A stretch of DNA of 64,000 bases from a virus. Taxonomy: Duplodnaviria; Heunggongvirae; Uroviricota; Caudoviricetes. A program made the translations under genes and the position numbers. Shown here one piece after another: positions 4,942-64,000 of the stretch (position 1 is the stretch's first letter; every line of letters begins with the position of its first letter). The stretch lies in the IMG/VR virus record IMGVR_UViG_2534682349_000001; one strand, 5' to 3'. Below the pieces are notes generated by a model. The model searched no databases. It had not been told where the DNA came from and saw nothing but the letters and a program-made list of their open reading frames with translations.

Positions 4942-5793
4942 ATGGCAATTAAATTATTTAGCATAGGATTATTTGACGAGAAAGATGAGCTTACCAGAAT
5001 CAATATTGAAGTTTTCCCAGATCATACACCGCTTATTCATGTAGATATAGAAGGATTTGAGCTATCTACTCTCAAGCTCGAAATTAGATGGGATTATGAG
5101 AATGATTCTGAATTAATGGATCTCATTTATATTACACGTTATCTACAAGACAAAGGTGTTCCTCATATTGGTTTGACGATGCCTTACATTCCTAATGCAC
5201 GTTATGATCGGATCAATAACGCCGATGAAGTTTTTACGCTTAAATATTTTGCCGAAGTGATTAATTCCCTTCACTTTGATTATGTGGATGTTTTAGATGC
5301 ACATTCGAACGTTAGTCTTGCGTTGATTGATAGAGTACGGCAAATAGATGTTGCTCCGTTAATTCAAATGGCTATTGACGACTTTAAACCAGATGTTCTG
5401 TTTATGCCTGATGAGGGAGCACATAAACGTTACTCAAAGATGTTTACCCTTCCATCAACGTTTGGTATTAAGACACGGGATTGGAGAACGGGTGAGATCA
5501 AAGATTACTTCTTGGCTGAACAAAATTTAGTTGAAGATAGGCGTGTATTAATTATCGATGATATTTGTTCAAGAGGTGGTACTTTCTATTACGCTTCAAA
5601 ATTACTTCGTGATAATGGTGCTACTTCAACTGGTTTATATGTAACCCATTGCGAAGATAACATCGCTAATGGCAATTTACTCAATAAAGAAAAATCAGGC
5701 ATTGAACAAATTTATACAGCTAATCCACTATGGCACAGAGATATGACCACATCAGTGTATTCGCCATTAGACGAGATTAAAGTCATTAACTAG
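4942..5793 (+). CDS. ribose-phosphate pyrophosphokinase (Prs)-family protein; candidate ADPR-pyrophosphate synthetase (Adps-like) of a NARP1-type pathway
   Basis: PRPP-binding signature VLIIDDICSRGGT. About 283 aa, shorter than housekeeping Prs. Immediately upstream of a NAMPT homolog, with an AGGAGG RBS. Confidence 0.75.
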   Translation: MAIKLFSIGLFDEKDELTRINIEVFPDHTPLIHVDIEGFELSTLKLEIRWDYENDSELMDLIYITRYLQDKGVPHIGLTMPYIPNARYDRINNADEVFTLKYFAEVINSLHFDYVDVLDAHSNVSLALIDRVRQIDVAPLIQMAIDDFKPDVLFMPDEGAHKRYSKMFTLPSTFGIKTRDWRTGEIKDYFLAEQNLVEDRRVLIIDDICSRGGTFYYASKLLRDNGATSTGLYVTHCEDNIANGNLLNKEKSGIEQIYTANPLWHRDMTTSVYSPLDEIKVIN

Positions 5794-5803
5794 GAGGAAT
5801 TAA

Positions 5804-7324
5804 ATGACAAAACCGTATTTAGCAACAGATTTTTATAAAGTATCGCATGCAATGAGGCGACTAAATAAGCCAGCTCTTCACCCAGAAAGTATTGAATGTA
5901 TTTATGAAGTATTGACTCCTCGTCAAAACTCATTCTTCCCATATGACGACAAAATGGTTGTATTTGGTTATGAATTTTTTGTGGCACGTCTGTTGGGCGA
6001 ATGGCAAACAGAGTTCTTTGACAAAGATTGGGAAGATATTAAGTTAGACTTTTATGTATTTTTCGAAATGTCAGATAGCCTTGTTTATCGTTCAATGGTT
6101 GAAAAACTCAAGCAATTACATGATTTGGGACATTTACCATTAGAAATTCGGTCATTGCCTGAAGGGTCATTAGTCCCAATGAGAGTTCCTGTGTTATCAA
6201 TCAGAAATACTGATCCAGATTTCTATTGGCTTCCAGGATTCTTAGAAACGACACTACTCGCAAATACTTTTGTAACAACTGGTACTGCTAGTGTGGCACG
6301 TCAATTCCGTAAGATCGCTGAACATTATGGTGATGTTTCAGCAGACGATAAGGCTTATATTGATTTCCAATTCCACGACTTTTCACAACGAGGACAACAT
6401 GGAGATGATGCTGCCGTTCTTTCTGGTATCGGACACTTGTCTAGTTTTAAGGGGACAGATGCAGTTCCAGCCGTAGATGAATTATTAAGAGTATATGGTG
6501 GACTTACCCCAGATGAACTAATCGGTGGATCAGTTGTTGCTACAGAACATTCAATTATGGAATCACTTGGTGGTGAATTTGGAACAGATAAGGAAGGTCA
6601 ACTTAAAGCTTATGAGTCTTTAATAGATCGAAATCCAGATGGCGTCATTTCTGTTGTTTCAGACACCTACCAATATTGGGACGTTATTGATTATGTATTG
6701 CCACAACTTAAAGAAAAGATTATGGCTCGTGATGGCAAGTTAGTTATTCGTCCTGATTCTCTTGATGAGTATCGTAAGGCGACTGGTCAAACTATTAAGT
6801 CTACTGAAGATCAATTAGTAACAACACTCCAGGCGTTATATGACACTTTCGGCGGCCATATTAATTCTAAGGGATACAAAGTGCTTGACCAACATATCGG
6901 ATTAATTCACGGCGAAGGAATTACCCTAGATAATATTCGACCAATGTTTGACGCCATCTTAAATGCTGGTTTCTCTGCCGAAAATATTGTTTTCGGATTA
7001 GGAGCTTATGTTTATTCCGTTAAGGTCTCACGTGATGATTTCGGACAAGCTTTGAAAGCTACCGCTTGCGTTATTGATGGTAAAGAGAAAGTTATTTTTA
7101 AGGCACCTCATTCAAAAAAAGAAGCATTCAAGCGTTCTCCTCATGGGGCGGTATCAATCCATGGTAAATCTGGGGAATATCATATGATTGAAAATTTGAC
7201 TATGGAAGAAGCAGCTAACGATAAAGATAATCAAATGACTTTGCTGTACAGTCCCAAATACGGTAATCGTGTCACATCATTACGAGATATTCGACAGAAG
7301 ATTTTACATGAATTGTATAAGTGA
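5804..7324 (+). CDS. nicotinamide phosphoribosyltransferase (NAMPT/NadV) family protein; candidate Namat-like enzyme
   Basis: N-terminal TDFYKVSH motif typical of NAMPT. 506 aa. RBS GGAGGA. Confidence 0.8.
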   Translation: MTKPYLATDFYKVSHAMRRLNKPALHPESIECIYEVLTPRQNSFFPYDDKMVVFGYEFFVARLLGEWQTEFFDKDWEDIKLDFYVFFEMSDSLVYRSMVEKLKQLHDLGHLPLEIRSLPEGSLVPMRVPVLSIRNTDPDFYWLPGFLETTLLANTFVTTGTASVARQFRKIAEHYGDVSADDKAYIDFQFHDFSQRGQHGDDAAVLSGIGHLSSFKGTDAVPAVDELLRVYGGLTPDELIGGSVVATEHSIMESLGGEFGTDKEGQLKAYESLIDRNPDGVISVVSDTYQYWDVIDYVLPQLKEKIMARDGKLVIRPDSLDEYRKATGQTIKSTEDQLVTTLQALYDTFGGHINSKGYKVLDQHIGLIHGEGITLDNIRPMFDAILNAGFSAENIVFGLGAYVYSVKVSRDDFGQALKATACVIDGKEKVIFKAPHSKKEAFKRSPHGAVSIHGKSGEYHMIENLTMEEAANDKDNQMTLLYSPKYGNRVTSLRDIRQKILHELYK

Positions 7325-15110: not shown

Positions 15111-15182
15111 ATCTATATGATATAATACTAAAGCAGGCAAGTTTTAAGGACGGTGGCCGATTCCTGACTGGAGGTGGTTCAT

Positions 15183-15359
15183 ATGGACTTCACCATTATG
15201 AAAGGATTATCGGCACATGAGCGCTTACCAAGCACTTATGTTAATGTTGACATTTGCGACATTTATTATCGCATTGTTAACCTTTATTTTCACATTTTGT
15301 GCATAATAAAAGACCGTCCTCGTATAACTTTGGCGAGTTGCAGGACGATCTTTTATTAG
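15183..15359 (+). CDS. small ORF (58 aa) inside an inverted-repeat-flanked mini-cassette. An alternative 29-aa hydrophobic peptide (MSAYQALMLMLTFATFIIALLTFIFTFCA) lies in another frame.
   Basis: GGAGGTG RBS 8 nt before the ATG. Own terminator at 15315–15357. Flanked by roughly 29-bp imperfect inverted repeats at 15130–15159 and 15374–15402. Confidence 0.25.
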   Translation: MDFTIMKGLSAHERLPSTYVNVDICDIYYRIVNLYFHILCIIKDRPRITLASCRTIFY

Positions 15360-25603: not shown

Positions 25604-25664
25604 ATGAGGTAGATGGGAATCGAACCCACATCCTAGCATGATCTACCAATTGAACTACTACCTC
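25604..25664 (-). tRNA. tRNA-like element, truncated (61 nt). It has an acceptor stem, a D-like arm and a T arm but no anticodon arm.
   Basis: 7-bp acceptor GAGGTAG/CTACCTC and T arm GTGGG-TTCGATT-CCCAT. Only about 9 nt sit where the 17-nt anticodon arm should be. Confidence 0.25.
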
Positions 25665-25956
25665 TGTCGGCTTTGTACACTCACCAACATTCCAAAGATC
25701 TTATTTTAAGCTCACAAATTTATTACACGGATAGGAGCTAGGTTCTACGTTTACCTGAATCGCCGTGGTTTCTATAAGAAATTTCTAACAACGAGGGAGC
25801 TACCCTCCGGCTTCAATTTATCGGAAGTGAAACCTTAGACGCTACGTTTCCTATTTATAGACGGATACACGTCTTCTTCGTTATCACCCACTCTGCCGTA
25901 CACCTTCATTGTGTATGATTGAGCTACTCTAGCACATAATGTGACGATCAATCCCC

Positions 25957-26035
25957 GTGCTGGAGGTTGGACTCGAACCAACAACCTGATGATTAAAACG
26001 AATATGGAGTAGACGGGAGTCGAACCCGTGTCCAA
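25957..26035 (-). other. two tandem tRNA 3'-half-like elements (T arm plus 3' acceptor strand) with no matching 5' halves
   Basis: GTTGG-TTCGAGT-CCAAC plus CTCCAGCA, and ACGGG-TTCGACT-CCCGT plus CTACTCCA. No complementary 5' acceptor strand lies within 90 nt. Confidence 0.3.
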
Positions 26036-26441
26036 CCAAACCAGTTTCCAAATACATTTTAGACTTAATAGGACTATGTTCTAAATTTTCGACTTAGGGA
26101 ACGTTACATAGTAATTTTCCAAAAACTACCTAGTCTAGCTAGTTTTAATACTTAGTCACACTCAAACTAGCAAATCATGAACTAAGACCAGAGGGGTGAA
26201 ATATGATAGCTAATATCCTTATCTGGTATCAAAATATTAACCAAGTGCCTATAAGCTAGGCAGCTAAAGCTGTAACTCTATGGTTATTTGCTTTTATATT
26301 TAAATGAAAGTATTTCGGCGTTATCTTCCGTAAGTCGTATTTAGGGCTTTATTTGACTGTCGAATCCATAAACTACCCCAGAATAGAACTTTAAATCATA
26401 GCTCCAAATAATAACTCAAATCGACTTCTTAATGAAGTCTA

Positions 26442-26515
26442 TAACACATACAGGATTTGAACCTGTGACCTCTTACCATTTCGGTAAGTGCTCTACCTAG
26501 CTGAGCTAATGTGTT
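26442..26515 (-). tRNA. tRNA with an atypical anticodon loop; isotype unresolved (loop CGAAATG, no U33)
   Basis: Perfect 7-bp acceptor AACACAT/ATGTGTT, canonical D arm GCTCAGCTAGGTAGAGC and T arm ACAGG-TTCAAAT-CCTGT. Anticodon stem CTTAC/GTAAG. Confidence 0.45.
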
Positions 26516-26981
26516 ACTTATATATCAAAATATTTATTCTGGTGGAACCCCTAACAGCTTTTGCCTTATTCCACATTTATTCCTACTAGCTTCATAGGAT
26601 GGGCATAGTCCTTATCCCTGCTAAGGGGCGCTGTCGTTACTCGCTGAATATTTTGATATGTTCTTGTTAAGGGAGACTCATTTCAAGACCTCAACATCAG
26701 TCGGTTGAATGACTACTTACGCGCTAAGGATGTATACTATCCTTTCATCATCTTCCCACCTGGTAGCTAACCCCACTCACGGATTCCGCACATGCCTACG
26801 CTCCGTCAGCGAATATTGTACCTGTCTTTTATAAAATCCTGATTTTCTCACCTGTTCAGGTTCAGTCTTGAATTAAAACCTCTGCGATCGGTCGTAACCT
26901 TTAATGCAAAGGGATTGTTCTTAAAGATTGATAGCTACGATTTTGTTTTATTTTGCGACCTCGGCTATCTGCTTGCCGCTA

Positions 26982-27076
26982 TACTCCCACCGAGACTCGA
27001 ACTCGGATCATCCAATAATCTGTTGGCATTCGCTCGGGTATAGACCGAGAGCCTTACCAATTAGGCCATGGGAGTG
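26982..27076 (-). tRNA. class II (long variable arm) tRNA with anticodon-loop sequence TCTATAC; isotype uncertain
   Basis: Acceptor ACTCCCA/TGGGAGT, D arm GCCTAATTGGTAAGGC, anticodon stem CTCGG/CCGAG, about 27-nt variable arm, T arm with TTCGAGT. Confidence 0.5.
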
Positions 27077-27254
27077 TAATAAAGAGGTGATTTATTTATA
27101 TTCGCAGCTACACCCCGCTGCTATCACATGCCAACAATACTAGGCAGCCTACCCCACCCTCGTGTTGACTTCGAGACACCAGTTTTACAGTCTATGTTTC
27201 CAAGGACACACTGGATTTACTCTCCGCTCCGTTAAGTGAAATACAATTCTAGCG

Positions 27255-27340
27255 ACGGTACACTAGAATCGAACCACCAATAAGGGATTCGAACCCTCAA
27301 CACCGCGTTGCAATCGCGCCTAGACATCTCATTTGGATTT
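27255..27340 (-). other. tRNA-like region with two T-arm-like motifs and an anticodon-like hairpin (CGCG-ATTGCAA-CGCG). No canonical acceptor found.
   Basis: GAGGG-TTCGAAT-CCCTT and GGTGG-TTCGATT-CTAG motifs on the − strand. Confidence 0.25.
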
Positions 27341-27513
27341 TATTTACTCCTCTTGTTGAACTCACACTTGCGGATTGTGTTTATCTCAAAGGTCTCCATC
27401 AATGCTCTACTAGGTTATCCAATACTTACCATATCCGCATTTATGACTTTCTTGGGTGGTATCCAAACTTGGTGAGAATAAATCAAATACTTAATTTTAA
27501 TATTTGATTTAAC

Positions 27514-27586
27514 TGCAAATATCGGATTCGAACCGATGACACAAGGTTTAACAGACCTCTGCTCTAACCAACTGAGCTAATTTGCA
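27514..27586 (-). tRNA. tRNA-Asn (anticodon GTT)
   Basis: Reverse complement reads TGCAAAT-TA-GCTCAGTTGGTTAGAGC-A-GAGGT-CTGTTAA-ACCTT-GTGTC-ATCGG-TTCGAAT-CCGAT-ATTTGCA. Confidence 0.7.
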
Positions 27587-27841
27587 AATAGTGGTAGTTA
27601 CAAACGATAATCACTACCTGATAGCACGCTTTTATCTCGGACTATCTTTTTTCGGTATTACTACTGTTACAAATACTTCTTCTATAACAGCGAATACATC
27701 ATTAGGTAATTAACCTAAACTCGTTAGAGCGCCCCTGCGTACTAGCAAGTTACTAGCTTGAGGACTTATATGATGGCTTCCCTATAACTCATAGCAATGG
27801 TGTGCGCCCCACCCTAACTACTAATCTGTCTGCCACCGGAT

Positions 27842-27913
27842 TGCGGTAACAGGACTCGAACCTGCGCATGACGGCACCAAAAACCGTTGCCTTACCAACT
27901 TGGCTATACCGCA
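27842..27913 (-). tRNA. tRNA-Gln (anticodon TTG)
   Basis: Reverse complement reads TGCGGTAT-AGCCAAGTTGGTAAGGC-ACGGT-TTTTGGT-GCCGT-CATGC-GCAGG-TTCGAGT-CCTGT-TACCGCA. Confidence 0.6.
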
Positions 27914-28476
27914 AGAATGCTTATTGGACTGGATTTGAACCAGTATCATGACCCAACCACTTCCTAATTCTGATCAGCTTAATCAGACACGACAACTGTC
28001 GCTCGGATTTGCACCGAGATTAGTTGGGTCTCTGACCTTGTAACATCAGCTAAATATTACTTTTAGAGTCACTACAATAAGCGGTATCCACCCAGAAACG
28101 TAAGATAGTAGATTGATAAGTTAAGAGCTTGTTGACTGTGCTAAGTATCAGTCTGATTACTCTTAGAGCTTATATCTTTTTGATGGACATTGACTTAGCA
28201 ATTCTGTCCACGAAAAGTAATCGATAGGACAACCACCAACCTACCTTGTAGAAACGCTGTTAAGCTTTCGTGGTCATGGTCACTCATTCTACTTTCACGG
28301 GGTTCGCCATGACGCGAGCCGCTTGGCTTTTCTTAATAGCCTGCCCAGGCTACCAAAATACAACACTTATTAATAAATAAGTGAAGCGCCATGATTTAGG
28401 CACATATCCACATTTGTTTTCCCTTACACGTTGACCTTTATCCTACTTTGCCGAGGAGGCAACTGCTTATCGGGAA

Positions 28477-28531
28477 TAGTCCTGTTGGGAATCGAACCCA
28501 ATTAATCTTCCTAGTACCATCAGACAGGACT
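28477..28531 (-). tRNA. mini tRNA-like element (about 55 nt): acceptor plus T arm with one 23-nt internal segment
   Basis: Acceptor AGTCCTG/CAGGACT, T arm TTGGG-TTCGATT-CCCAA. Too short for a cloverleaf. Confidence 0.25.
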
Positions 28532-29239
28532 CCAAACATAATACATGTATCGTTTCTTGGTTTATCGGAAGAAACTTGTTAGAAAAGACCGTATCACACT
28601 TTAGGGAAGTGATGGTCCCGGCGTTTTACCGCCGATTAAGGAGTCAAGGTCCAAGTTATCATCTACTATTTTTGGCGTGCTCCCTATTCTTATACACGTC
28701 CTTGGCATCGCAATGCTACAGGGAGAGAGGTTTCATACTATTGTTTCGAGGCCCAACCTTCCAGCCAAGTAGAATCCCATCTAAAACTGGGTATAGCTCC
28801 AGTACGCTCATCTCATTATCAAATGAGATATTTATAAAAGAAGCATTTTACTAACAGAAGGCATAAACTGTCATTCTTCCCACTAGTGGTCAGAACTTTT
28901 TCTAGACTGCTTTTTATTTTTCAAAGGCTTCCGCCAATAACTAGTATGACTTGCAATCTTGTGTTTGTATTATTCAGGGTGTAGATTACCAGATCACCCG
29001 AACCCGCAACCTGAGAATTAAACCCAGCATTAACTTAGGCAATATCTGCATCGCAGGTAGTCGCACACGCAACCATAACAATAAGAAGCGTGGCATCAAT
29101 CACATTACGAGCATTAGAAACTCCTCCAGTTGTGAGTAGGATACCTCGTATAAATCACATTACTGCCATTTATACTCAAGCGCTTCAACCGACATACCTG
29201 TTGCCGGTTTTCCTATTATACATATCCATATAACAGAAA

Positions 29240-54484: not shown

Positions 54485-55030
54485 AACCCTTCTAATTTGT
54501 TTCAGCGGTTATTATTAATCGCTTTATATAGAGTCTTATCGTGCTGATAAGGCTCTCTAAAAACAATTAATAGTGTTCGTTAAGTGTCGTCAGTGTTTGT
54601 ATGTATAAACCCCGTCCAGTTCAAGCCCCACTTAATAGGCTAATCTTCCCCTTTTATGGTTCATACTCACGATTTATATGCTGCCACCATATAACCCGCC
54701 TTGCATTCGCTATCCAGTTTTCAAGCATTTCACTCAGTCCGTGGTAGTGTTTGCAAGTTTTATTTAATTTTCAAGGTTCGCCGTTGTAATTATTTCCCAC
54801 TTTGTGGAGGTCATTCTTTAACGGTAACGTTTACGCCCAGTCTGTAGAATTAGCACCATGCTCTCCACGTGCCCTGATCTTTCACCCGTTGCATAGCCTT
54901 GTTGGGTAGCTTTCACCATAACCCTAGGTGATAATAACGCCTTATCCAGACCCTTTTCGGTACAGTCTTGATTGAGTTGCGACTTACTAACGTTTTTTGA
55001 ATTGGTAACTTTCCAATTAGTTTGAGTATT

Positions 55031-55490
55031 TTATATTATAGCGTGAACGCTATATAAACAACCCATTTTTTATTAATCGCTCAAGGCTTGCGATTGCTTG
55101 TTGTTTGATTGTGTTTATATTATAGCGTGAACGCTATAATGTGTCAAGCCTTAATTTTAGAATTTTTAGCGGTTGACCTTGAAGTCAAAGTTAGATACTC
55201 AAGTGAACTCACTGTTTAATTCATTTATTAAGTTTGCACCTTTATTATAGTGTGAACGCTATAACGCGTCAAGAAGTAATTTTGATTAATTTTTATCGCC
55301 TAGGCTAGTTCGGTGACTGCTCTTTATTGCGATTAGTCGTTAATCAACTTTACGGCTTTTATTATAGCGTGAACGTTATAAATTGTCAACACCTTTTTCA
55401 AATTATTTTTTGAAGTTCGATGTTTAATTGTTGCCGTTGTCCTTTTGACGATTTTAATTATATAGCGTGAACACTATAAAGTCAACTATA
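55031..55490 (-). promoter_or_regulatory. tandem array of sigma-A consensus promoters (five copies, four near-perfect), each with a TATAGCG-TGAAC-CGCTATA-type palindrome in the spacer, all firing leftward
   Basis: − strand reads TTGACA-cattatagcgttcacgc-TATAAT (55116–55150), TTGACG-N17-TATAAT (55241–55276), TTGACA-N17-TATAAT (55357–55393), TTGACT-N17-TATAAT (55455–55490) and a weaker TTGTTT copy (55031–55062). Spacing is about 110–120 bp. Confidence 0.6.
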
Positions 55491-58071: not shown

Positions 58072-59404
58072 TGTCGTTTCCCCATTCTTATATTAAACGT
58101 ATGTTCTCTTGTTATAATACACGAACGAATGTTCTTTATCAAGTATTATCAGCAACTAGATACATATATCGCTTTGTAGTACATTTTCATATTTATGTTC
58201 TTAATGCCATATACCCAATTATTCTAATTTATGAAAATATTACGCACCCAAAATAGCCATTTTTTGAAACAAAGAAAATTACCCTCTCGCTTTCATGGCA
58301 ATTATTTTCATAAAATTACTCAAAACCACCCCAATTTGCAGCCAAAATAATCTTCGAAACTCCCTATGAACAATTCATCAATTCACAAACTTTCGACTTC
58401 TACACAAACAACATTACTGAATTTAATTATGCTTTGTGAAATTTTCTTCACTAATTCAAGAATTCAATTCCAAATAACTAAAATATGAGTAAAAATTGTT
58501 ATGAAAACATCATTTTATGCACACCTAACTTATTTACGAAACAATCTGTCTTATTGTATAAAACTAGAAATTCATCAATCTTAATATTTCGCACCCTACT
58601 ACTCATGTAACTAACCCTATCGAAACTCCCTATTTTTAATTTTGATATTTTTATTCAAATCACTGAATTTTTTTACCAAAAAATGAACTAATACCAACTC
58701 CTATTTAATAGGATCTAGTAGTACTTTTTTATAATTATTATTCACTTGAGACATCTATTAGTACATCTTCGATAATACAAGGGTTTTCAAACATCTAATT
58801 CCAGAAAATTTCACAAACTTAAAAAGGGTGCGAGGTATTTTTACTCTAATAACCTATAATTATATGTTTCGTATTGGTTCATTATTTCCACTCAGACTAT
58901 TTTTCATAATTACGCCGCCATTTATCCATTGTAATAGGAAGAAACCCTCTATTTTCTATCACTACTTTTATTGTCGCTTGTGAAGTCATCAAAAAATGCT
59001 ATTTCATTTTTATGTAACTATTCTCGCCTTCTTTTTCTCTTTAAACACAGCCAAACATCAACGTAGAATGGACTTAACGGGTCATAAATCAAAATTACAT
59101 TAATTTATCTAAATCAGCTCTTAGCTCCATTATTCATTGTTCGTTTTGATTGTTTATGAGCAATAATTATGTAGGTCAATTATTAAAGCAGCTATTCCAC
59201 AAGTTCCTTTAAATAAAAAACAGCGACAGTAAATACCACCGCTGAAATAATTACGGATTACTTACGTAACCACTTACTAATCTTTTTAATTAGCTTTTTA
59301 ACGTGCTTATTAGGCACGAACAATATTATTAAGCACCAATGCGACACAAGGAGTTACCTCCTCTCTGCACTAGTCGGGTTTCCTACGCCCGCTCAAATGT
59401 GCTT

Positions 59405-59538
59405 TTTAATTGTATCATATTAATTTCATGTTATAATATATATAACAATATTATTAAGCCGTGTGCATCGTGGGTGCTTCCTAACTCACGGATCGGTTTA
59501 ACGTGGGGCGCCCTGATAGGCGCTCTTTTTTTGTTTTA
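59405..59538 (+). ncRNA. candidate small RNA unit (promoter TTGTAT-N15-TTATAAT to terminator)
   Basis: A promoter-like element at about 59408–59436, about 95 nt of structured sequence, then the terminator gcgcc-ctgata-ggcgc plus T9 at 59505–59538. A 16-nt direct repeat AACAATATTATTAAGC also heads a similar unit at 59320. Confidence 0.3.
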
Positions 59539-59679
59539 AATGTGTTAAAATGTGTATATCAAGATAAGAAAGATATACCGAGTGTATATTGGTTTCAGTT
59601 GACTACTTGAATCAAACTCGTTAGAGATAGAGTATCTATATGAATAGGTGCTCTATCTTTTTATTTCTCAGATTGAATT

Positions 59680-59760
59680 ACAAGTGACTTCTATATGACT
59701 TCTTTAGACAATAACAGTTAAGCTCCTCTATTCCTTATAATTCAATTTGAAGTCACGGTG
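59680..59760. repeat. TGACTTC / GAAGTCA centromere-like repeats downstream of the adaptor gene
   Basis: gtgacttc (59684), atgacttc (59696), ttgaagtcac (59747). Confidence 0.45.
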
Positions 59761-59811
59761 GCTTCTAGTCGTAAATTAAAAAGGACTCAAGTTTCCTTGA
59801 GCCCCTTTTAA

Positions 59812-60150
59812 TCACAATGAAGAGAACATGCCTAAATCTGCTTTACTTTCACTATCGTTTTTTTTATCATCCGGCTTATTTTTGACTTCAGTTTTAATGT
59901 TTGAATCAGTTGTTTCCGACTTATCAGCATTCACTTTGCCGTCATTTTTCACTTTTTCTTCATCTTTGGCACTCAGTGCGACCTGTTTGGGAACAATTTT
60001 TCGATAATCATCAAATCCATAATTGCCGATGATAGTTCGTATAGCAGCATCTATTGAGTCGCCTTTTTTGCTCTGCTTAGCCATCCATTGGCCGATATCA
60101 TCTTCTGAATCATACCTAAATGTAAATGTCTTGGTACTCATATCACTCAC
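59812..60150 (-). CDS. putative ParR/Alp7R-like DNA-binding adaptor of the actin-like segregation system
   Basis: Small basic gene immediately downstream of the actin-like ATPase in the same operon; the N-terminus may carry an RHH-like fold. Lys/Asp-rich tail. Confidence 0.4.
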   Translation of the reverse strand: MSDMSTKTFTFRYDSEDDIGQWMAKQSKKGDSIDAAIRTIIGNYGFDDYRKIVPKQVALSAKDEEKVKNDGKVNADKSETTDSNIKTEVKNKPDDKKNDSESKADLGMFSSL

Positions 60151-60155
60151 CTATT

Positions 60156-61361
60156 TTAAGCAGCATTCTTCGCAATGTACCAGAGTCCATCACGATTTAA
60201 CGTTTGAGCATAAGGCGCTGGAATCCAAAGTACAGGAACAACTTGTCCCCCATTATATGACTTCAGTTTTTCTTCAAGTTTTGTACGCAACTGACTTTGA
60301 TCTTTCATGGGAATTGACCCACCACCATGTACAGTAGCTACCTCAATTCCGGCACCAGCTTTACGCAATGCACGACTAACCTCATCAACAATACGATCAC
60401 AGAAAGGTTCTAGTTGAGCAAATACGATCTTTTCAACTGCATTATAGCGTGCTCGACTCAATGGAGAAGGTTTGCTTGCCAGGAATTCTTTTAATTCAGC
60501 AACGCTTGCAAAGTTGTATCTCTTATCTTCGAGAACCTCTAACGCTTCTTGAAGAGCGTTGTCATATCCCTCTGATAGAGAGAATGATGCAACTGTTAAA
60601 GCCTTACCATTGATAATAACAACAATATCTACTGTGCCAGCACCAATATCAATGCTAACTACATTCTTGGCATGAATTAAATCCTCGGCGCTAACAAGAG
60701 AAGCTAACTCTGGATAGTGCTCATCGAAGTCAGCTTTAATTTTTGTAGTAAGATCTTTGTTTTCTCCAGTAGAGATATAGAATTGTGCAGTTTCTCCTTC
60801 AGTAGCAACAAATACCTTATCAAATTCAATATTTACAGTAATTGGGTTATTGAAGTTATGAAATGTTACCTGATGTGTGCTTCCATTATAACGAGAACGA
60901 TACATATTCTTAACGTTAATATCACTACCTTCTTTTACTGGAAGGGCCACAGCCATTTTGCTCTTGACTTTAATCGGCTCAGATAAATCAGAACCTTTAC
61001 TATATGCGTTCTCTACAGCTGCTCCAGCAATCATACTCAATGAAAGAATTAATGAATAATCACTTTCAGACTTACCTGCATAATCATTAATATCAAAATG
61101 AGTAAGTGGTAAGTTTTTATCCATTGCGTATTGTCCAATTAAAAAACGTCCTGGAGTTTTTACTGCACTACTAGAAATAGTCACATCCATATGGTTGATG
61201 AAATCTTTCATGTAGTCATCTTTTTGACCTTTACTCTCGAACTCAATTGGAGAAGCGATATCCTGTTCACGTTCAATAGTGAAAACAGATGGAAACTTGA
61301 TTTCCTTGTCATCGATAATTGCCTTAACCGAACCATATCCTAAATCATTTGCTACTTTCAT
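60156..61361 (-). CDS. actin-like segregation ATPase (ParM/Alp family)
   Basis: N-terminal phosphate-1-like DLGYGSVKA and phosphate-2-like IDIGAGTVDIVVI motifs of the actin/Hsp70 fold. 401 aa. Confidence 0.65.
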   Translation of the reverse strand: MKVANDLGYGSVKAIIDDKEIKFPSVFTIEREQDIASPIEFESKGQKDDYMKDFINHMDVTISSSAVKTPGRFLIGQYAMDKNLPLTHFDINDYAGKSESDYSLILSLSMIAGAAVENAYSKGSDLSEPIKVKSKMAVALPVKEGSDINVKNMYRSRYNGSTHQVTFHNFNNPITVNIEFDKVFVATEGETAQFYISTGENKDLTTKIKADFDEHYPELASLVSAEDLIHAKNVVSIDIGAGTVDIVVIINGKALTVASFSLSEGYDNALQEALEVLEDKRYNFASVAELKEFLASKPSPLSRARYNAVEKIVFAQLEPFCDRIVDEVSRALRKAGAGIEVATVHGGGSIPMKDQSQLRTKLEEKLKSYNGGQVVPVLWIPAPYAQTLNRDGLWYIAKNAA

Positions 61362-61405
61362 AGTTAGTCCCTCCGTATTTCATCTTCACATAATATTATA
61401 CTTCA

Positions 61406-61520
61406 TTTTGACTTCTTTTTGAAGTCGTTTTAGAAATTTAATTGATTTATTTTTTGAATTTGACTTCAAAATGAATTGTATGTGACATCTTAAAGTTTAC
61501 ATGACTTCTTTTTGACTTCC
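61406..61520. repeat. TGACTTC direct/inverted repeats upstream of the actin-like gene (parC-like centromere/operator)
   Basis: ttttgacttcttttt-gaagtc (61406–61426), tgacttc (61461), atgacttc (61501), ttgacttcc (61512). Confidence 0.5.
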
Positions 61521-61543
61521 AAATCACTTTAGTAACATGACAC

Positions 61544-61580
61544 TTGTAACTTGATACATGTAATTTGTAACTTGTAACTA
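61544..61580. repeat. TTGTAAC repeats (three copies) downstream of the parA operon
   Basis: acttgtaac, tttgtaac, ttgtaac. Confidence 0.4.
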
Positions 61581-61613: not shown

Positions 61614-61880
61614 TTAATTGTTGAAGTATTTTTTATAATTAGAAAACATTGGACTATCCAATCCTTCTAACAACATCTGATTTGTCACATCTAACATACT
61701 TCTTTTTTCTTCAAAAGCAATCCTTCTTATTAACTCGTAAAGCTCCAAAGAAATTCTTGTCGTCTTAGTTTCGTTTGTTCCTAAACGATAGGGATTAACG
61801 TCACCACCAACACGTTTACCTTCTTTTTTCCCTACAACTTCACTAGCTTCTTCAAGTACATCAAAATCATCTTTAGCCAT
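61614..61880 (-). CDS. ribbon-helix-helix centromere-binding protein (ParG-like partner of ParA)
   Basis: 88 aa. The C-terminal TTRISLELYELIRRIAFEEKRSMLDVTNQML fits an RHH fold. Directly downstream of parA. Confidence 0.5.
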   Translation of the reverse strand: MAKDDFDVLEEASEVVGKKEGKRVGGDVNPYRLGTNETKTTRISLELYELIRRIAFEEKRSMLDVTNQMLLEGLDSPMFSNYKKYFNN

Positions 61881-62659
61881 TAATCTTCATCTCCCATTCG
61901 ATACAACATTTCATGGAAAACCAAACTATACATTTCATGAGTTTCCTTGTCATGTCTATCTGTTTTCTTGTGTGTAATTCCCTTGTCGCTCCATCGTGTC
62001 ACTCTATCTCTATTATAAATTTCGTTACTAAATACTGATTTACCAAAATTGTCTCGAAGCTCCTTGGCAATTTCTTGATTCGTTCGATTAGATTTCGTAA
62101 CTAAATATAATATAAACCCAGGAACCTTAAATGGTAATTTAAAGTCTTTTCTAAGACCTGTTAAATAGGTAATAGAATCTTTCAACGCATTATATCCTGA
62201 TCGTTGAGCAGGAACTGGAATAAAAACATAATCAGCAGCAAAAACAGCATTATGTGTAAAATCACTTGTTCGAGGCGGTACGTCAATCAAAATATAATCA
62301 TAATTCTCTTTTATCTTATCAATAGCCTGTTCTAGAATAGTATTTTTTGCTAATTGAGGTAATTTTTCCAATGCCGACGGCCATAAACTTAATTTCCAAC
62401 TTCCTGGAATTACATCTAGATTGTCATCCAATGTAACAATCGCTCTTGCCAATGCATTATTTTTTAACGCCTCAACAATACCATAATGTGTCTTTATTTT
62501 CCCATATCCCGCCTCTAAAAATTGCGTAGCATTTCGTTGTGGGTCAAAATCTATTAATAACACATGTTTGCCATCTTTGGATAAATGATCAGCAGCCAAC
62601 ACTGAAAGAGTAGTCTTACCAACTCCTCCTTTATAATTGTAGAAAACCAAAGTAGACAT
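61880..62659 (-). CDS. parA: ParA/Soj-family partition ATPase
   Basis: Deviant Walker A YKGGVGKTT, then DFDPQ and the remaining ParA motifs. 259 aa. Confidence 0.85.
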   Translation of the reverse strand: MSTLVFYNYKGGVGKTTLSVLAADHLSKDGKHVLLIDFDPQRNATQFLEAGYGKIKTHYGIVEALKNNALARAIVTLDDNLDVIPGSWKLSLWPSALEKLPQLAKNTILEQAIDKIKENYDYILIDVPPRTSDFTHNAVFAADYVFIPVPAQRSGYNALKDSITYLTGLRKDFKLPFKVPGFILYLVTKSNRTNQEIAKELRDNFGKSVFSNEIYNRDRVTRWSDKGITHKKTDRHDKETHEMYSLVFHEMLYRMGDED

Positions 62660-62705
62660 AGGTTTTACACCTCCACTTCTTTATTTAATTACATCTTACT
62701 AAATA

Positions 62706-62755
62706 TTGTAACAAATTACAAGATACTTGTTACTTGTAACAAGTGATATGTAACT
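62706..62755. repeat. TTGTAAC / GTTACAA inverted and direct repeats upstream of parA (parS/operator-like)
   Basis: ttgtaac (62706), cttgttac (62726), ttgtaacaag (62734), atgtaac (62749). Confidence 0.45.
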
Positions 62756-63277: not shown

Positions 63278-64000
63278 ATGAATAACCAAAAAGCGTTTCT
63301 AGGTATCAACCTAGATTTACTCGAAAACCCAAAATATAAGAATCTAGACTCCCGTGCAATGATGTTGTACGCTCTTTACGCTGACCGCTATTCTGCATCA
63401 ATGAATAACGCTCGTTTAGGGAATACTGCATTTGTTGATGACATGGGGGTCTTTATTCGTTTTACGAATGAATTAGCTGCTAAAGTACTTCACGTATCAA
63501 AACAGAAAGTGACAGATTTTCGAAAAGAATTATCTGACTTAGACTTGATCAAGGTCGTTCGTGAAGGTTTAAAGGGTTACAAAATCTATGTTTATCCAGT
63601 TCAACAAACACCAAGTAATGTTGAGCTTCTTTTGCCATGGAAAAATCACACTATTACTGTTCAAAAAGTAACTTCTGATTGGACTATTTTATCTAAAATT
63701 GAATTCTGCAAAAACCTTAAATTATCTACTCAAAATGTTGATATTAGCGTGAGTCGGATTTCTGAATCCACGTGCTCCTCAAAAACCGATACTAGTTTAT
63801 CTCACTCTAGTTTATCTCATGTATTTTTAAATAATAATGGTTTGGATAATAACGCGCGTGCGCGTAAAGAAAATGAAATCCAACCCAATCAATCAAACAA
63901 GAATCCATATCACTCTTTACCAGAAAAGATAAAGAGTTCATTTGTTGATGTATTTGGTTTTATTACAAAGCCTATGGCTATTGAACTACATTCTCTAATC
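63278..64000 (+). CDS. RepA_N-family replication initiator, 3'-partial (runs off the window end)
   Basis: The N-terminus AFLGINLDLLENPKYKNLDSRAMMLYALYADRYSASMNN...FIRFTNELAAKVLHVSKQKVTDFRKELSDLDLIKVVREGLKGYKIYVYPV matches the RepA_N pattern (Y.vP..L....YK.Ls..AklLY.lL.DR.sLS..N...D..G.vyi.ft.eeL...L..s..ti.k..keL...gLI...R.Glg..n.IYV). No stop codon before 64000. Confidence 0.7.
   Translation, partial: MNNQKAFLGINLDLLENPKYKNLDSRAMMLYALYADRYSASMNNARLGNTAFVDDMGVFIRFTNELAAKVLHVSKQKVTDFRKELSDLDLIKVVREGLKGYKIYVYPVQQTPSNVELLLPWKNHTITVQKVTSDWTILSKIEFCKNLKLSTQNVDISVSRISESTCSSKTDTSLSHSSLSHVFLNNNGLDNNARARKENEIQPNQSNKNPYHSLPEKIKSSFVDVFGFITKPMAIELHSLI

Follow-up and report, generated by a model that had tools for sequence, protein, structure and literature searches.

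Locus and gene content

We analysed a 64,000-nucleotide stretch of DNA held as IMG/VR virus record IMGVR_UViG_2534682349_000001 (the window), and describe here a putative type II (ParMRC-like) partition module close to one end of it (Table 1). On the minus strand, a gene for an actin-like ATPase of 401 amino acids (aa) is followed by a small gene for an adaptor candidate, and copies of the heptamer TGACTTC, which reads GAAGTCA in gene orientation, are clustered on both sides of the pair. A first-pass annotation, made from the sequence alone, had proposed an actin-fold ATPase, a small basic adaptor and repeat clusters on both flanks, arranged as in the ParMRC and Alp7AR partition systems and carried by a phage-like element. 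It missed the adjacent ParA-type operon (61614-62659). Related loci used for comparison are cited below as L001 (NZ_CP139477), L002 (FN041), L008 (p53608_1) and L023 (a metagenome).

Table 1 Features of the partition region and the neighbouring genes, with positions in the window. AF2, AlphaFold2.
Feature	Position	Strand	Basis
Downstream centromere-like cluster	59685-59765	minus	Repeat scan; kept in L001, L002, L023
Terminator-like hairpin right behind the adaptor stop	59772-59811	minus	Inverted repeat; RNA fold with free energy (dG) of -26 kcal/mol, then U-run
ParR-like adaptor candidate, 109 aa: N-domain, low-complexity linker, C-terminal LGMFSSL	59812-60141	minus	Context, family conservation
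GAAGTCA copy within the adaptor gene (3' part, linker-coding)	59883-59889	minus	Repeat scan
Actin-like segregation ATPase (ParM/Alp family), 401 aa	60156-61361	minus	Pfam, PHROG, AF2, Foldseek
Promoter-like TTCAAA-17-TATAAT	61395-61423	minus	Consensus scan, 10/12 matches
Upstream parC-like cluster, seven GAAGTCA-type sites, several 11 bp apart	61398-61519	minus	Repeat scan
TTGTAAC/GTAAC array behind the ParA operon	61532-61580		Repeat scan
88-aa ParA partner, ParB/ParG-like candidate	61614-61880	minus	Overlaps ParA stop; weak PHROG 5118
ParA-type (Walker) partition ATPase, 259 aa	61880-62659	minus	Pfam AAA_31 E 8.5e-38, CbiA; PHROG 164 ParA-like
TTGTAAC/TTGTTAC repeats, upstream of parA, motif as at 61532-61580	62705-62755		Repeat scan
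repA start, replication initiator, runs off the window	63278-64000	plus	95%/85%/84% identical to L002/L003/L001 repA

The 401-aa protein has the fold of segregation actins

Translation of the open reading frame (ORF) places both motifs quoted in the first-pass annotation, NDLGYGSVKA and IDIGAGTVDIVVI, in the same 401-aa protein. This protein exceeds the Pfam cut-offs for ALP_N (30.8 bits against 26.3) and MreB-like_C (31.6 bits against 27.8), and it matches PHROG 691, a 'partition protein' family, with an E-value of 6e-30. It stays below the cut-off for the Pfam family Alp7A_like_C (PF22128; 17.1 bits against 22) and does not reach that of NF010498, the NCBIfam equivalog for R1-type ParM (21.5 bits against 417). 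A comparison of its sequence with all PDB chains gave no match at E ≤ 1.

A structural model made with AF2, using 20 homologues, has a predicted local distance difference test (pLDDT) score of 89 and a predicted template modelling (pTM) score of 0.86. The closest PDB structure found with Foldseek is that of Alp7A (5ec0; E 6.9e-16, template modelling (TM) score 0.64-0.67). Ta0583 and the ParM proteins of B. thuringiensis, pSK41 and pCBH are further top matches, and Dh-cParM1, CorM, Alp12 and R1 ParM are also among the matches. Segregation and archaeal actins outrank eukaryotic actin in this list. Neither a sugar kinase nor an Hsp70 is found among the 50 best PDB matches, and the actin reading is therefore favoured. 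Identity to the solved ParM structures is 13-17% in structural alignments. The nucleotide-binding residues D6, G8, D238, G240, G242, T243, D245 and G346-348 are invariant across the 20 homologues, and the phosphate-1, phosphate-2 and adenosine motifs can all be found.

Homologues of the ATPase are held by 277 Bacillota plasmid records, nearly all of them annotated as ParM/StbA, and by none of the 50,697 phage records searched with tblastn. Phage proteins with the same fold do exist, since the best match in BFVD is gp506 of Bacillus phage G. Overall, the predicted structure confirms the protein as an actin-fold ParM/Alp segregation ATPase, as the first-pass annotation had it. It represents a distinct family of actin-like proteins (ALPs), with less than 20% identity to any solved structure. 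Actin-type partition is itself well known, and automated annotation had already given this protein the name ParM/StbA in relatives.

The adaptor candidate belongs to an uncatalogued family

The small gene begins 14 nt past the ParM stop codon on the same strand, and AGGTGA precedes its ATG (60141). The ORF lister had put the start at an upstream GTG (112 aa); starting at the ATG gives 109 aa, which is also the length of the closest homologues. The first-pass annotation was right to see a small gene behind parM, but the product is not basic: its pI is 5.49, with 20 Lys and Arg residues set against 21 Asp and Glu residues.

Of 17 related loci, 16 have a homologous small ORF behind parM, and a library of 1.84 billion proteins yielded 246 representatives of the family at E ≤ 1e-3. 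Its members share a conserved N-domain of ~45 residues, a low-complexity charged linker and a short C-terminal motif. The N-domain comprises a strand-like KTFTFRY segment followed by the conserved residues W19, Q23, S29, G42 and D45. The C-terminal motif, (D)[LI]xM[LF]S, is kept across otherwise divergent tails and reads LGMFSSL in the window. No match to the adaptor was obtained in Pfam, NCBIfam, PHROG or the PDB with the single sequence, or in Pfam and the PDB with a profile, and Pfam scans of 13 and of 50 family members gave no recurrent family. PDB profile matches of two adaptor alignments, A2 and A4, to MPEG1 and the ryanodine receptor were dismissed as noise. Using hhalign, the N-domain profile could be aligned with ParM-adjacent small proteins of B. 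thuringiensis pIS56-63 (95% probability) and C. perfringens pJFP55H (81% probability). Judged by sequence, the adaptor candidate is a member of an uncatalogued family of ParM-linked small proteins that lacks a Pfam entry and is labelled 'hypothetical' in current annotation.

The AF2 monomer model of the adaptor is weak (pLDDT 56): its N-terminus is extended, two helices follow at residues 15-24 and 28-41 (pLDDT ~75), and the tail is disordered. A Foldseek search with this model found nothing. A G-D-S (G-x-S) turn ahead of helix 2, as seen here, is a hallmark of the ribbon-helix-helix (RHH) fold. In the homologues L014-L017 (203-216 aa; for example L015, 4212-4823) the N-domain is present twice in tandem, as expected for a domain that works as a dimer. 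Together, the pattern of secondary structure, the turn and the tandem domains are compatible with an RHH fold, which we infer as probable and do not assign because the monomer model is of low confidence and the Foldseek search was empty. The tandem-domain homologues may be natural single-chain dimers.

The upstream repeats cover a promoter-like site

The window contains 21 copies of TGACTTC, compared to 7.6 ± 2.6 in shuffled sequences, and none of 100 shuffles reached 21. Ten of the 21 copies lie within 59685-61519. The two intergenic flanks of the operon, 523 bp in all, contain seven exact copies, compared to 0.22 per kb elsewhere. The clusters lie where the first-pass annotation had placed them, one upstream and one downstream of the operon.

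Among the upstream sites, those at 61409, 61461, 61502 and 61513 are exact, those at 61421 (inverted) and 61483 have one mismatch, and 61398 (GAAGTAT) has two. A map of the sites relative to the ParM ATG and the adaptor stop, allowing one mismatch, puts the upstream copies at -158/-147 (11 bp apart), -128 and -106, with an inverted pair at -66/-54. The inverted pair is GACTTCAAAAAGAAGTC, and four loci with diverging surroundings share the block GACTTCAAAnnGAAGTCAAAATGAnGTATAA without any change. The promoter-like TTCAAA-17-TATAAT is the sole strong site of its kind upstream of the ParM operon, and a ribosome-binding site, GGAGGG, lies ahead of the ParM gene at 61369-61374. The inverted pair covers the -35 hexamer and the spacer, and the degenerate GAAGTAT (61398-61404) overlaps the -10 hexamer. 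By analogy with R1 parC, repeats placed over the promoter in this way have the layout of an autoregulated centromere.

The repeat motif changes with the adaptor

GAAGTCA is found on both flanks wherever the adaptor N-domain is 80-100% identical, namely in the window, L001, L002 and L023. In L001, where ParM is 99.8% and the adaptor 77% identical, there are three copies upstream and three downstream. L002 (ParM 79%, adaptor 83%) has the motif on both flanks, mostly as copies with one mismatch, and so does L023, whose adaptor is 48% identical overall and ~80% identical in the N-domain, as read by eye from the sequence. L008 has a ParM that is 81% identical, and an adaptor N-domain that is just 53% identical. 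GAAGTCA is absent from this locus, whose flanks carry TCATTCA in its place, with five copies upstream and three downstream. These copies form the same 11-bp pairs at equivalent positions (-63/-52 on the upstream side, +79/+90 and +130/+141 on the downstream side).

Identity of RepA is 95% for L002, 85% for L003 and 84% for L001, yet L003 has a different adaptor and lacks GAAGTCA. ParA is only 29-31% identical in L001, L002 and L003, and the 88-aa ParA partner has no homologue in these loci. The motif thus changes with the adaptor N-domain and not with RepA or ParA, and we therefore assign the repeats to the adaptor. Comparison of the loci predicts adaptor-specific recognition of the repeats. 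The type II architecture named in the first-pass annotation is likewise supported by the parC-parM-parR layout, by the repeats over the promoter and by this co-variation.

We give very little credence to the idea that the repeats are iterons or operators of RepA or of the 88-aa ParA partner. They do lie less than 2 kb from repA and directly after the ParA operon, but the motif accompanies three unrelated ParA/partner pairs, is missing in L003 with its 85% identical RepA, and shifts solely where the adaptor N-domain shifts, while the ParA operon has bracketing TTGTAAC repeats of its own. On the evidence of these module swaps, RepA iterons and ParB sites were both rejected as identities for the GAAGTCA repeats.

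The repeats bracket the operon

The downstream sites are located at 59685 and 59696 (direct, 11 bp apart), at 59749 (inverted) and at 59759 (one mismatch). Measured from the adaptor stop they are at +46, +56 (inverted), +109 and +120, the last two being 11 bp apart. A second, convergent terminator-like hairpin is present on the plus strand at 59623-59660; the downstream cluster lies between this and the hairpin behind the adaptor gene, and is therefore not at a promoter. In the window, the two flanks have 10 8-mers in common, compared to 3.4 in shuffled sequences (3 of 300 shuffles reach 10). The corresponding figures are 13 against 3.7 for L001 and 23 against 4.0 for L008, with 0 of 300 shuffles reaching the observed number in either locus.

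Repeat copies extend into the adaptor gene itself. At the place that corresponds to the in-gene copy of the window, L001 has two copies and L023 has three, with 11-bp spacing. These copies occupy different reading frames (GAA GTC A versus AAG TCA), which argues for selection on the DNA motif and not on a peptide. GAAGTCA copies inside the ParM gene (60258 and 60726) are not kept in L002 and were treated as chance occurrences.

We consider it probable that the downstream cluster is a second adaptor-binding site, as predicted from the conservation of its pairs: L001, L002 and the window all have pairs near +45/+56 and +106/+117. It seems rather unlikely that the downstream repeats do not form a working centromere, being instead a decaying duplicate or an auxiliary regulatory or roadblock site next to a plain ParMRC system with upstream parC. 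Some degeneration is indeed seen, as the window has a TGGCTTC unit and one unit that is inverted relative to L001, and the L002 cluster consists mostly of one-mismatch copies. However, decay would sit poorly with L008, where the downstream motif has been swapped to TCATTCA in step with the upstream cluster, with L023, which keeps its copies though the flanking sequence has diverged, and with the in-gene copies, which are upheld across reading frames. Speaking for the alternative, the more distantly related loci of L. salivarius, L. mucosae and L. iners have no motif common to both flanks. Since the shared motif is missing there, bracketing is a trait of the L. reuteri clade and not of the family. 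The bracketing layout is a modestly unusual variant of the centromere arrangement.

Proposed mode of action

We estimate a probability of roughly 85% that the locus is a partition module of type II (ParMRC-like) and belongs to a low-copy plasmid or phage-plasmid of L. reuteri, ~100-130 kb in size. In such a module, adaptor dimers would bind the GAAGTCA repeats cooperatively via the N-domain, probably an RHH domain, and binding would both repress the operon's own promoter and assemble the partition complex. The 401-aa protein would form ATP-dependent filaments, whose ends would be captured by the conserved C-terminal LGMFSSL tail of the adaptor, and these filaments would push sister copies apart. 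The downstream cluster, most likely a second site that reaches back into the adaptor gene at its 3' end, would enlarge the partition complex or loop it round the operon. The ParM module would work beside an independent ParA-type system with its own bracketing repeats.

Several observations weigh against this interpretation. The adaptor has no detectable similarity to solved ParR structures in the PDB or to Pfam RHH families, and its monomer model is the weak one described above, with no Foldseek match. The GAAGTCA spacing is not strictly phased, as the intervals include some of 19 and 40 bp. Exact copies are few in L002, with one upstream and one downstream. Finally, the restriction of the two-flank layout to the L. 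reuteri clade suggests that the downstream cluster is dispensable for the family as a whole.

A more far-reaching proposal can be made only tentatively, and we hold it at slightly less than even odds. Here the type II centromere of the L. reuteri clade would be bipartite and bracket its own operon, with one part over the promoter and the other running from the linker-coding end of the adaptor gene to beyond the terminator. The adaptor could thereby loop or coat the 1.8-kb operon into a single partition complex, and the ParA repeats would follow the same logic. The region would then be a double par locus in tandem arrangement, built from swappable modules and carried by a ~130-kb phage-plasmid, and the adaptor would represent an undescribed DNA-binding family.

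Comparison with known partition systems

The module resembles ParMRC of R1 and pSK41 in the order centromere-ATPase-adaptor, in the actin fold of the ATPase (Foldseek matches 3js6, E 4e-15, and 1mwk, E 3e-11), and in having repeats about one helical turn apart over the operon promoter. R1 parC has 11-bp iterons, according to work cited in PMC9426499. The adaptors are alike in being small, with an N-terminal DNA-binding part (predicted here) and a flexible C-terminal tail. Unlike the R1 system, the window has an ATPase that is ~80 aa longer than R1 ParM, and unlike both R1 and pSK41 it has a sequence-unrelated adaptor family and a further set of repeats behind the adaptor gene.

The Alp7A/Alp7R/alp7C system of the Bacillus subtilis plasmid pLS20 belongs likewise to a Firmicutes plasmid, is of similar size, and has the adaptor gene downstream and the repeats upstream. 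Although Alp7A is the best structural neighbour of the window ATPase, the two share just 17% identity and the Alp7A_like_C score is below the cut-off. We know of no description of a downstream centromere cluster for alp7.

Identity to the ParM proteins of C. perfringens pCW3-like plasmids and of B. thuringiensis is 25-26% by tblastn. ParR-parC specificity defines families in C. perfringens, where ParR_B binds two 8-bp direct repeats separated by 3 bp (PMC9426499). These systems differ from the window in that parC is described only upstream of parM, in their repeat sequences, and in having no adjacent ParA in the loci read.

The double par locus of pB171, the closest precedent known to us, also has ParM-type and ParA-type systems side by side, and a centromere on both sides of an operon. 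On this E. coli plasmid the type II par1 is next to the type Ib par2, with parC1 and parC2, and the operons are divergent. In the window, by contrast, the two operons follow one another on one strand, and each is flanked on either side by a distinct motif of its own; the proteins are sequence-unrelated and the host is Gram-positive. For pB171 ParR, binding to 10-bp repeats upstream of parM is cited in PMC9426499.

In the Bacillus plasmid-prophages IEBH, Bp8p-C and B83, a ParM-like protein with an RHH or helix-turn-helix (HTH) adaptor maintains the extrachromosomal prophage (PMC11526630). The element studied here differs from these in having no tblastn match in the phage collection, in its larger size (~130 kb, judging by its relatives) and in also having ParA.

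As a result of this analysis, an adaptor and a centromere with a predicted motif are now assigned to a ParM family that is common on Lactobacillaceae megaplasmids. The natural module swaps would predict two incompatibility groups, of GAAGTCA type and of TCATTCA type. The compact cassette is also a candidate stability module for vectors in L. reuteri, which is a probiotic chassis.

The neighbouring ParA operon and repA

Directly upstream of the ParM operon, the ParA operon is a type Ib-like system in which the 88-aa protein is the partner candidate. PrgP is the best NCBIfam match of the ATPase. The 88-aa protein has neither a Pfam nor an NCBIfam match, and relatives carry DUF5388 or RepC-like genes at its position. 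The repA gene is annotated as replication initiator protein A in the relatives. L. reuteri plasmids share the order repA, parA-partner, parM-adaptor but differ in their ParA modules. RepA and ParA types vary independently of the adaptor and its repeats. The region is a double par locus. The TTGTAAC bracketing of the ParA operon mirrors the GAAGTCA bracketing of the ParM operon.

The host element is probably a phage-plasmid

The DNA of the window matches only records deposited as L. reuteri plasmids. No match was found in the phage collection by megablast or tblastn, and for this reason a 'known phage' identity was rejected. The window and the 128.8-kb record NZ_CP102426.1 (L. reuteri FN041 'plasmid unnamed1'; L006 and L007) are collinear, with matching positions offset by a constant ~24.39 kb. 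As the window spans both ends of that record, the molecule is circular or permuted. A related plasmid, ATCC 53608 pI (138.5 kb), was shown by polymerase chain reaction (PCR) to be a closed circle (PMC4667477). Past repA, the FN041 relative carries genes for a terminase, a 9.1-kb tape measure gene, a holin and XhlA, as well as a 7.2-kb 'phage specificity protein' gene, a primase and a PHP-domain polymerase. The window encodes a DnaB-like helicase, a Sak4-like ATPase, an exonuclease, a RecD-like helicase, a nicotinamide phosphoribosyltransferase and a Dcm methylase. Its ten largest ORFs have replication, nucleotide-metabolism, methylase and integrase-like Pfam domains and no structural ones, and no capsid, tail or lysis genes were found among the window ORFs scanned.

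Considering the collinearity with FN041 and the phage-type genes, the element is probably a phage-plasmid, of low copy number and ~100-130 kb by analogy with its relatives. The phage-like element of the first-pass annotation therefore survives in part: the terminase, tape measure and holin genes of the FN041 relative point to it, but the DNA itself matches plasmid records only, with nothing in the phage collection. The deposited L. reuteri plasmids related to it have the look of phage-plasmids; we found no paper that says this of them or that deals with their partition.

These phage traits raise the alternative that the ParM-like protein and the adaptor serve the phage side of the element and, in lytic growth, place or move viral DNA as it replicates. 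AlpC/AlpA play such a role for the Corynebacterium CGP3 prophage. The phage-type replication genes, tRNAs and transfer-messenger RNA (tmRNA) of the element would suit this role, as would the terminase, tape measure and holin genes of its collinear relative, and the fold is encoded by phages, as PHROG 691 and phage G gp506 show. Nonetheless, we regard it as highly unlikely. The same module, with the 99.8% identical ParM, is found on NZ_CP139477, a 99-kb MOBP plasmid with no phage structural genes in the ~14 kb of annotations read, and ParM homologues are also present on L. salivarius megaplasmids. Plasmid partition is therefore favoured over a role in the lytic cycle. In addition, the module always lies beside repA and parA, the 50,697 phage records contain no homologue, and the ParM-like systems of Bacillus plasmid-prophages have been described as partition systems (PMC11526630).

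The operon-bracketing centromere is modestly unusual, and so is the combination with a ParA system on a probable phage-plasmid equipped with tRNA and tmRNA genes.

Further features of the window

A 4.7-kb stretch without any ORF of at least 92 aa (25605-29996, minus strand) contains a tmRNA gene and eight tRNA genes, here on an extrachromosomal element. The tmRNA, at 26002-26379 (Rfam, 76 bits), has the tag ANNHRVTALAA. A phage-type pair for salvage of nicotinamide adenine dinucleotide (NAD) is encoded at 4942-7324 on the plus strand, as a phosphoribosyltransferase-domain protein followed by the nicotinamide phosphoribosyltransferase (PHROG 448, E 1e-141), and the collinear FN041 additionally encodes a PnuC transporter, whose location corresponds to ~30.7-31.5 kb of the window.

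The palindrome TTATAGCGTGAACGCTATAA is present in five copies, 84-125 bp apart, at 55020-55482. This array lies in the gene-poor region at 54.2-57.7 kb, where the GC skew flips, and is possibly an operator/promoter array or related to an origin.

A match to the Listeria small RNA (sRNA) family rli28 was found at 15111-15286 on the plus strand (Rfam, 73.5 bits; gathering score 45). Beyond the downstream repeats of the ParM operon, an sRNA-like unit at 59440-59536 (plus strand) gave no Rfam match; it has a TATAAT-like box followed by ~90 nt that close with a GC hairpin and T-run (terminator 59505-59526). The sequence AACAATATTATTAAGC is exactly repeated at 59319 and 59444. The sRNA-like unit is kept in L002, L003 and L008, beside differing ParM and adaptor types.

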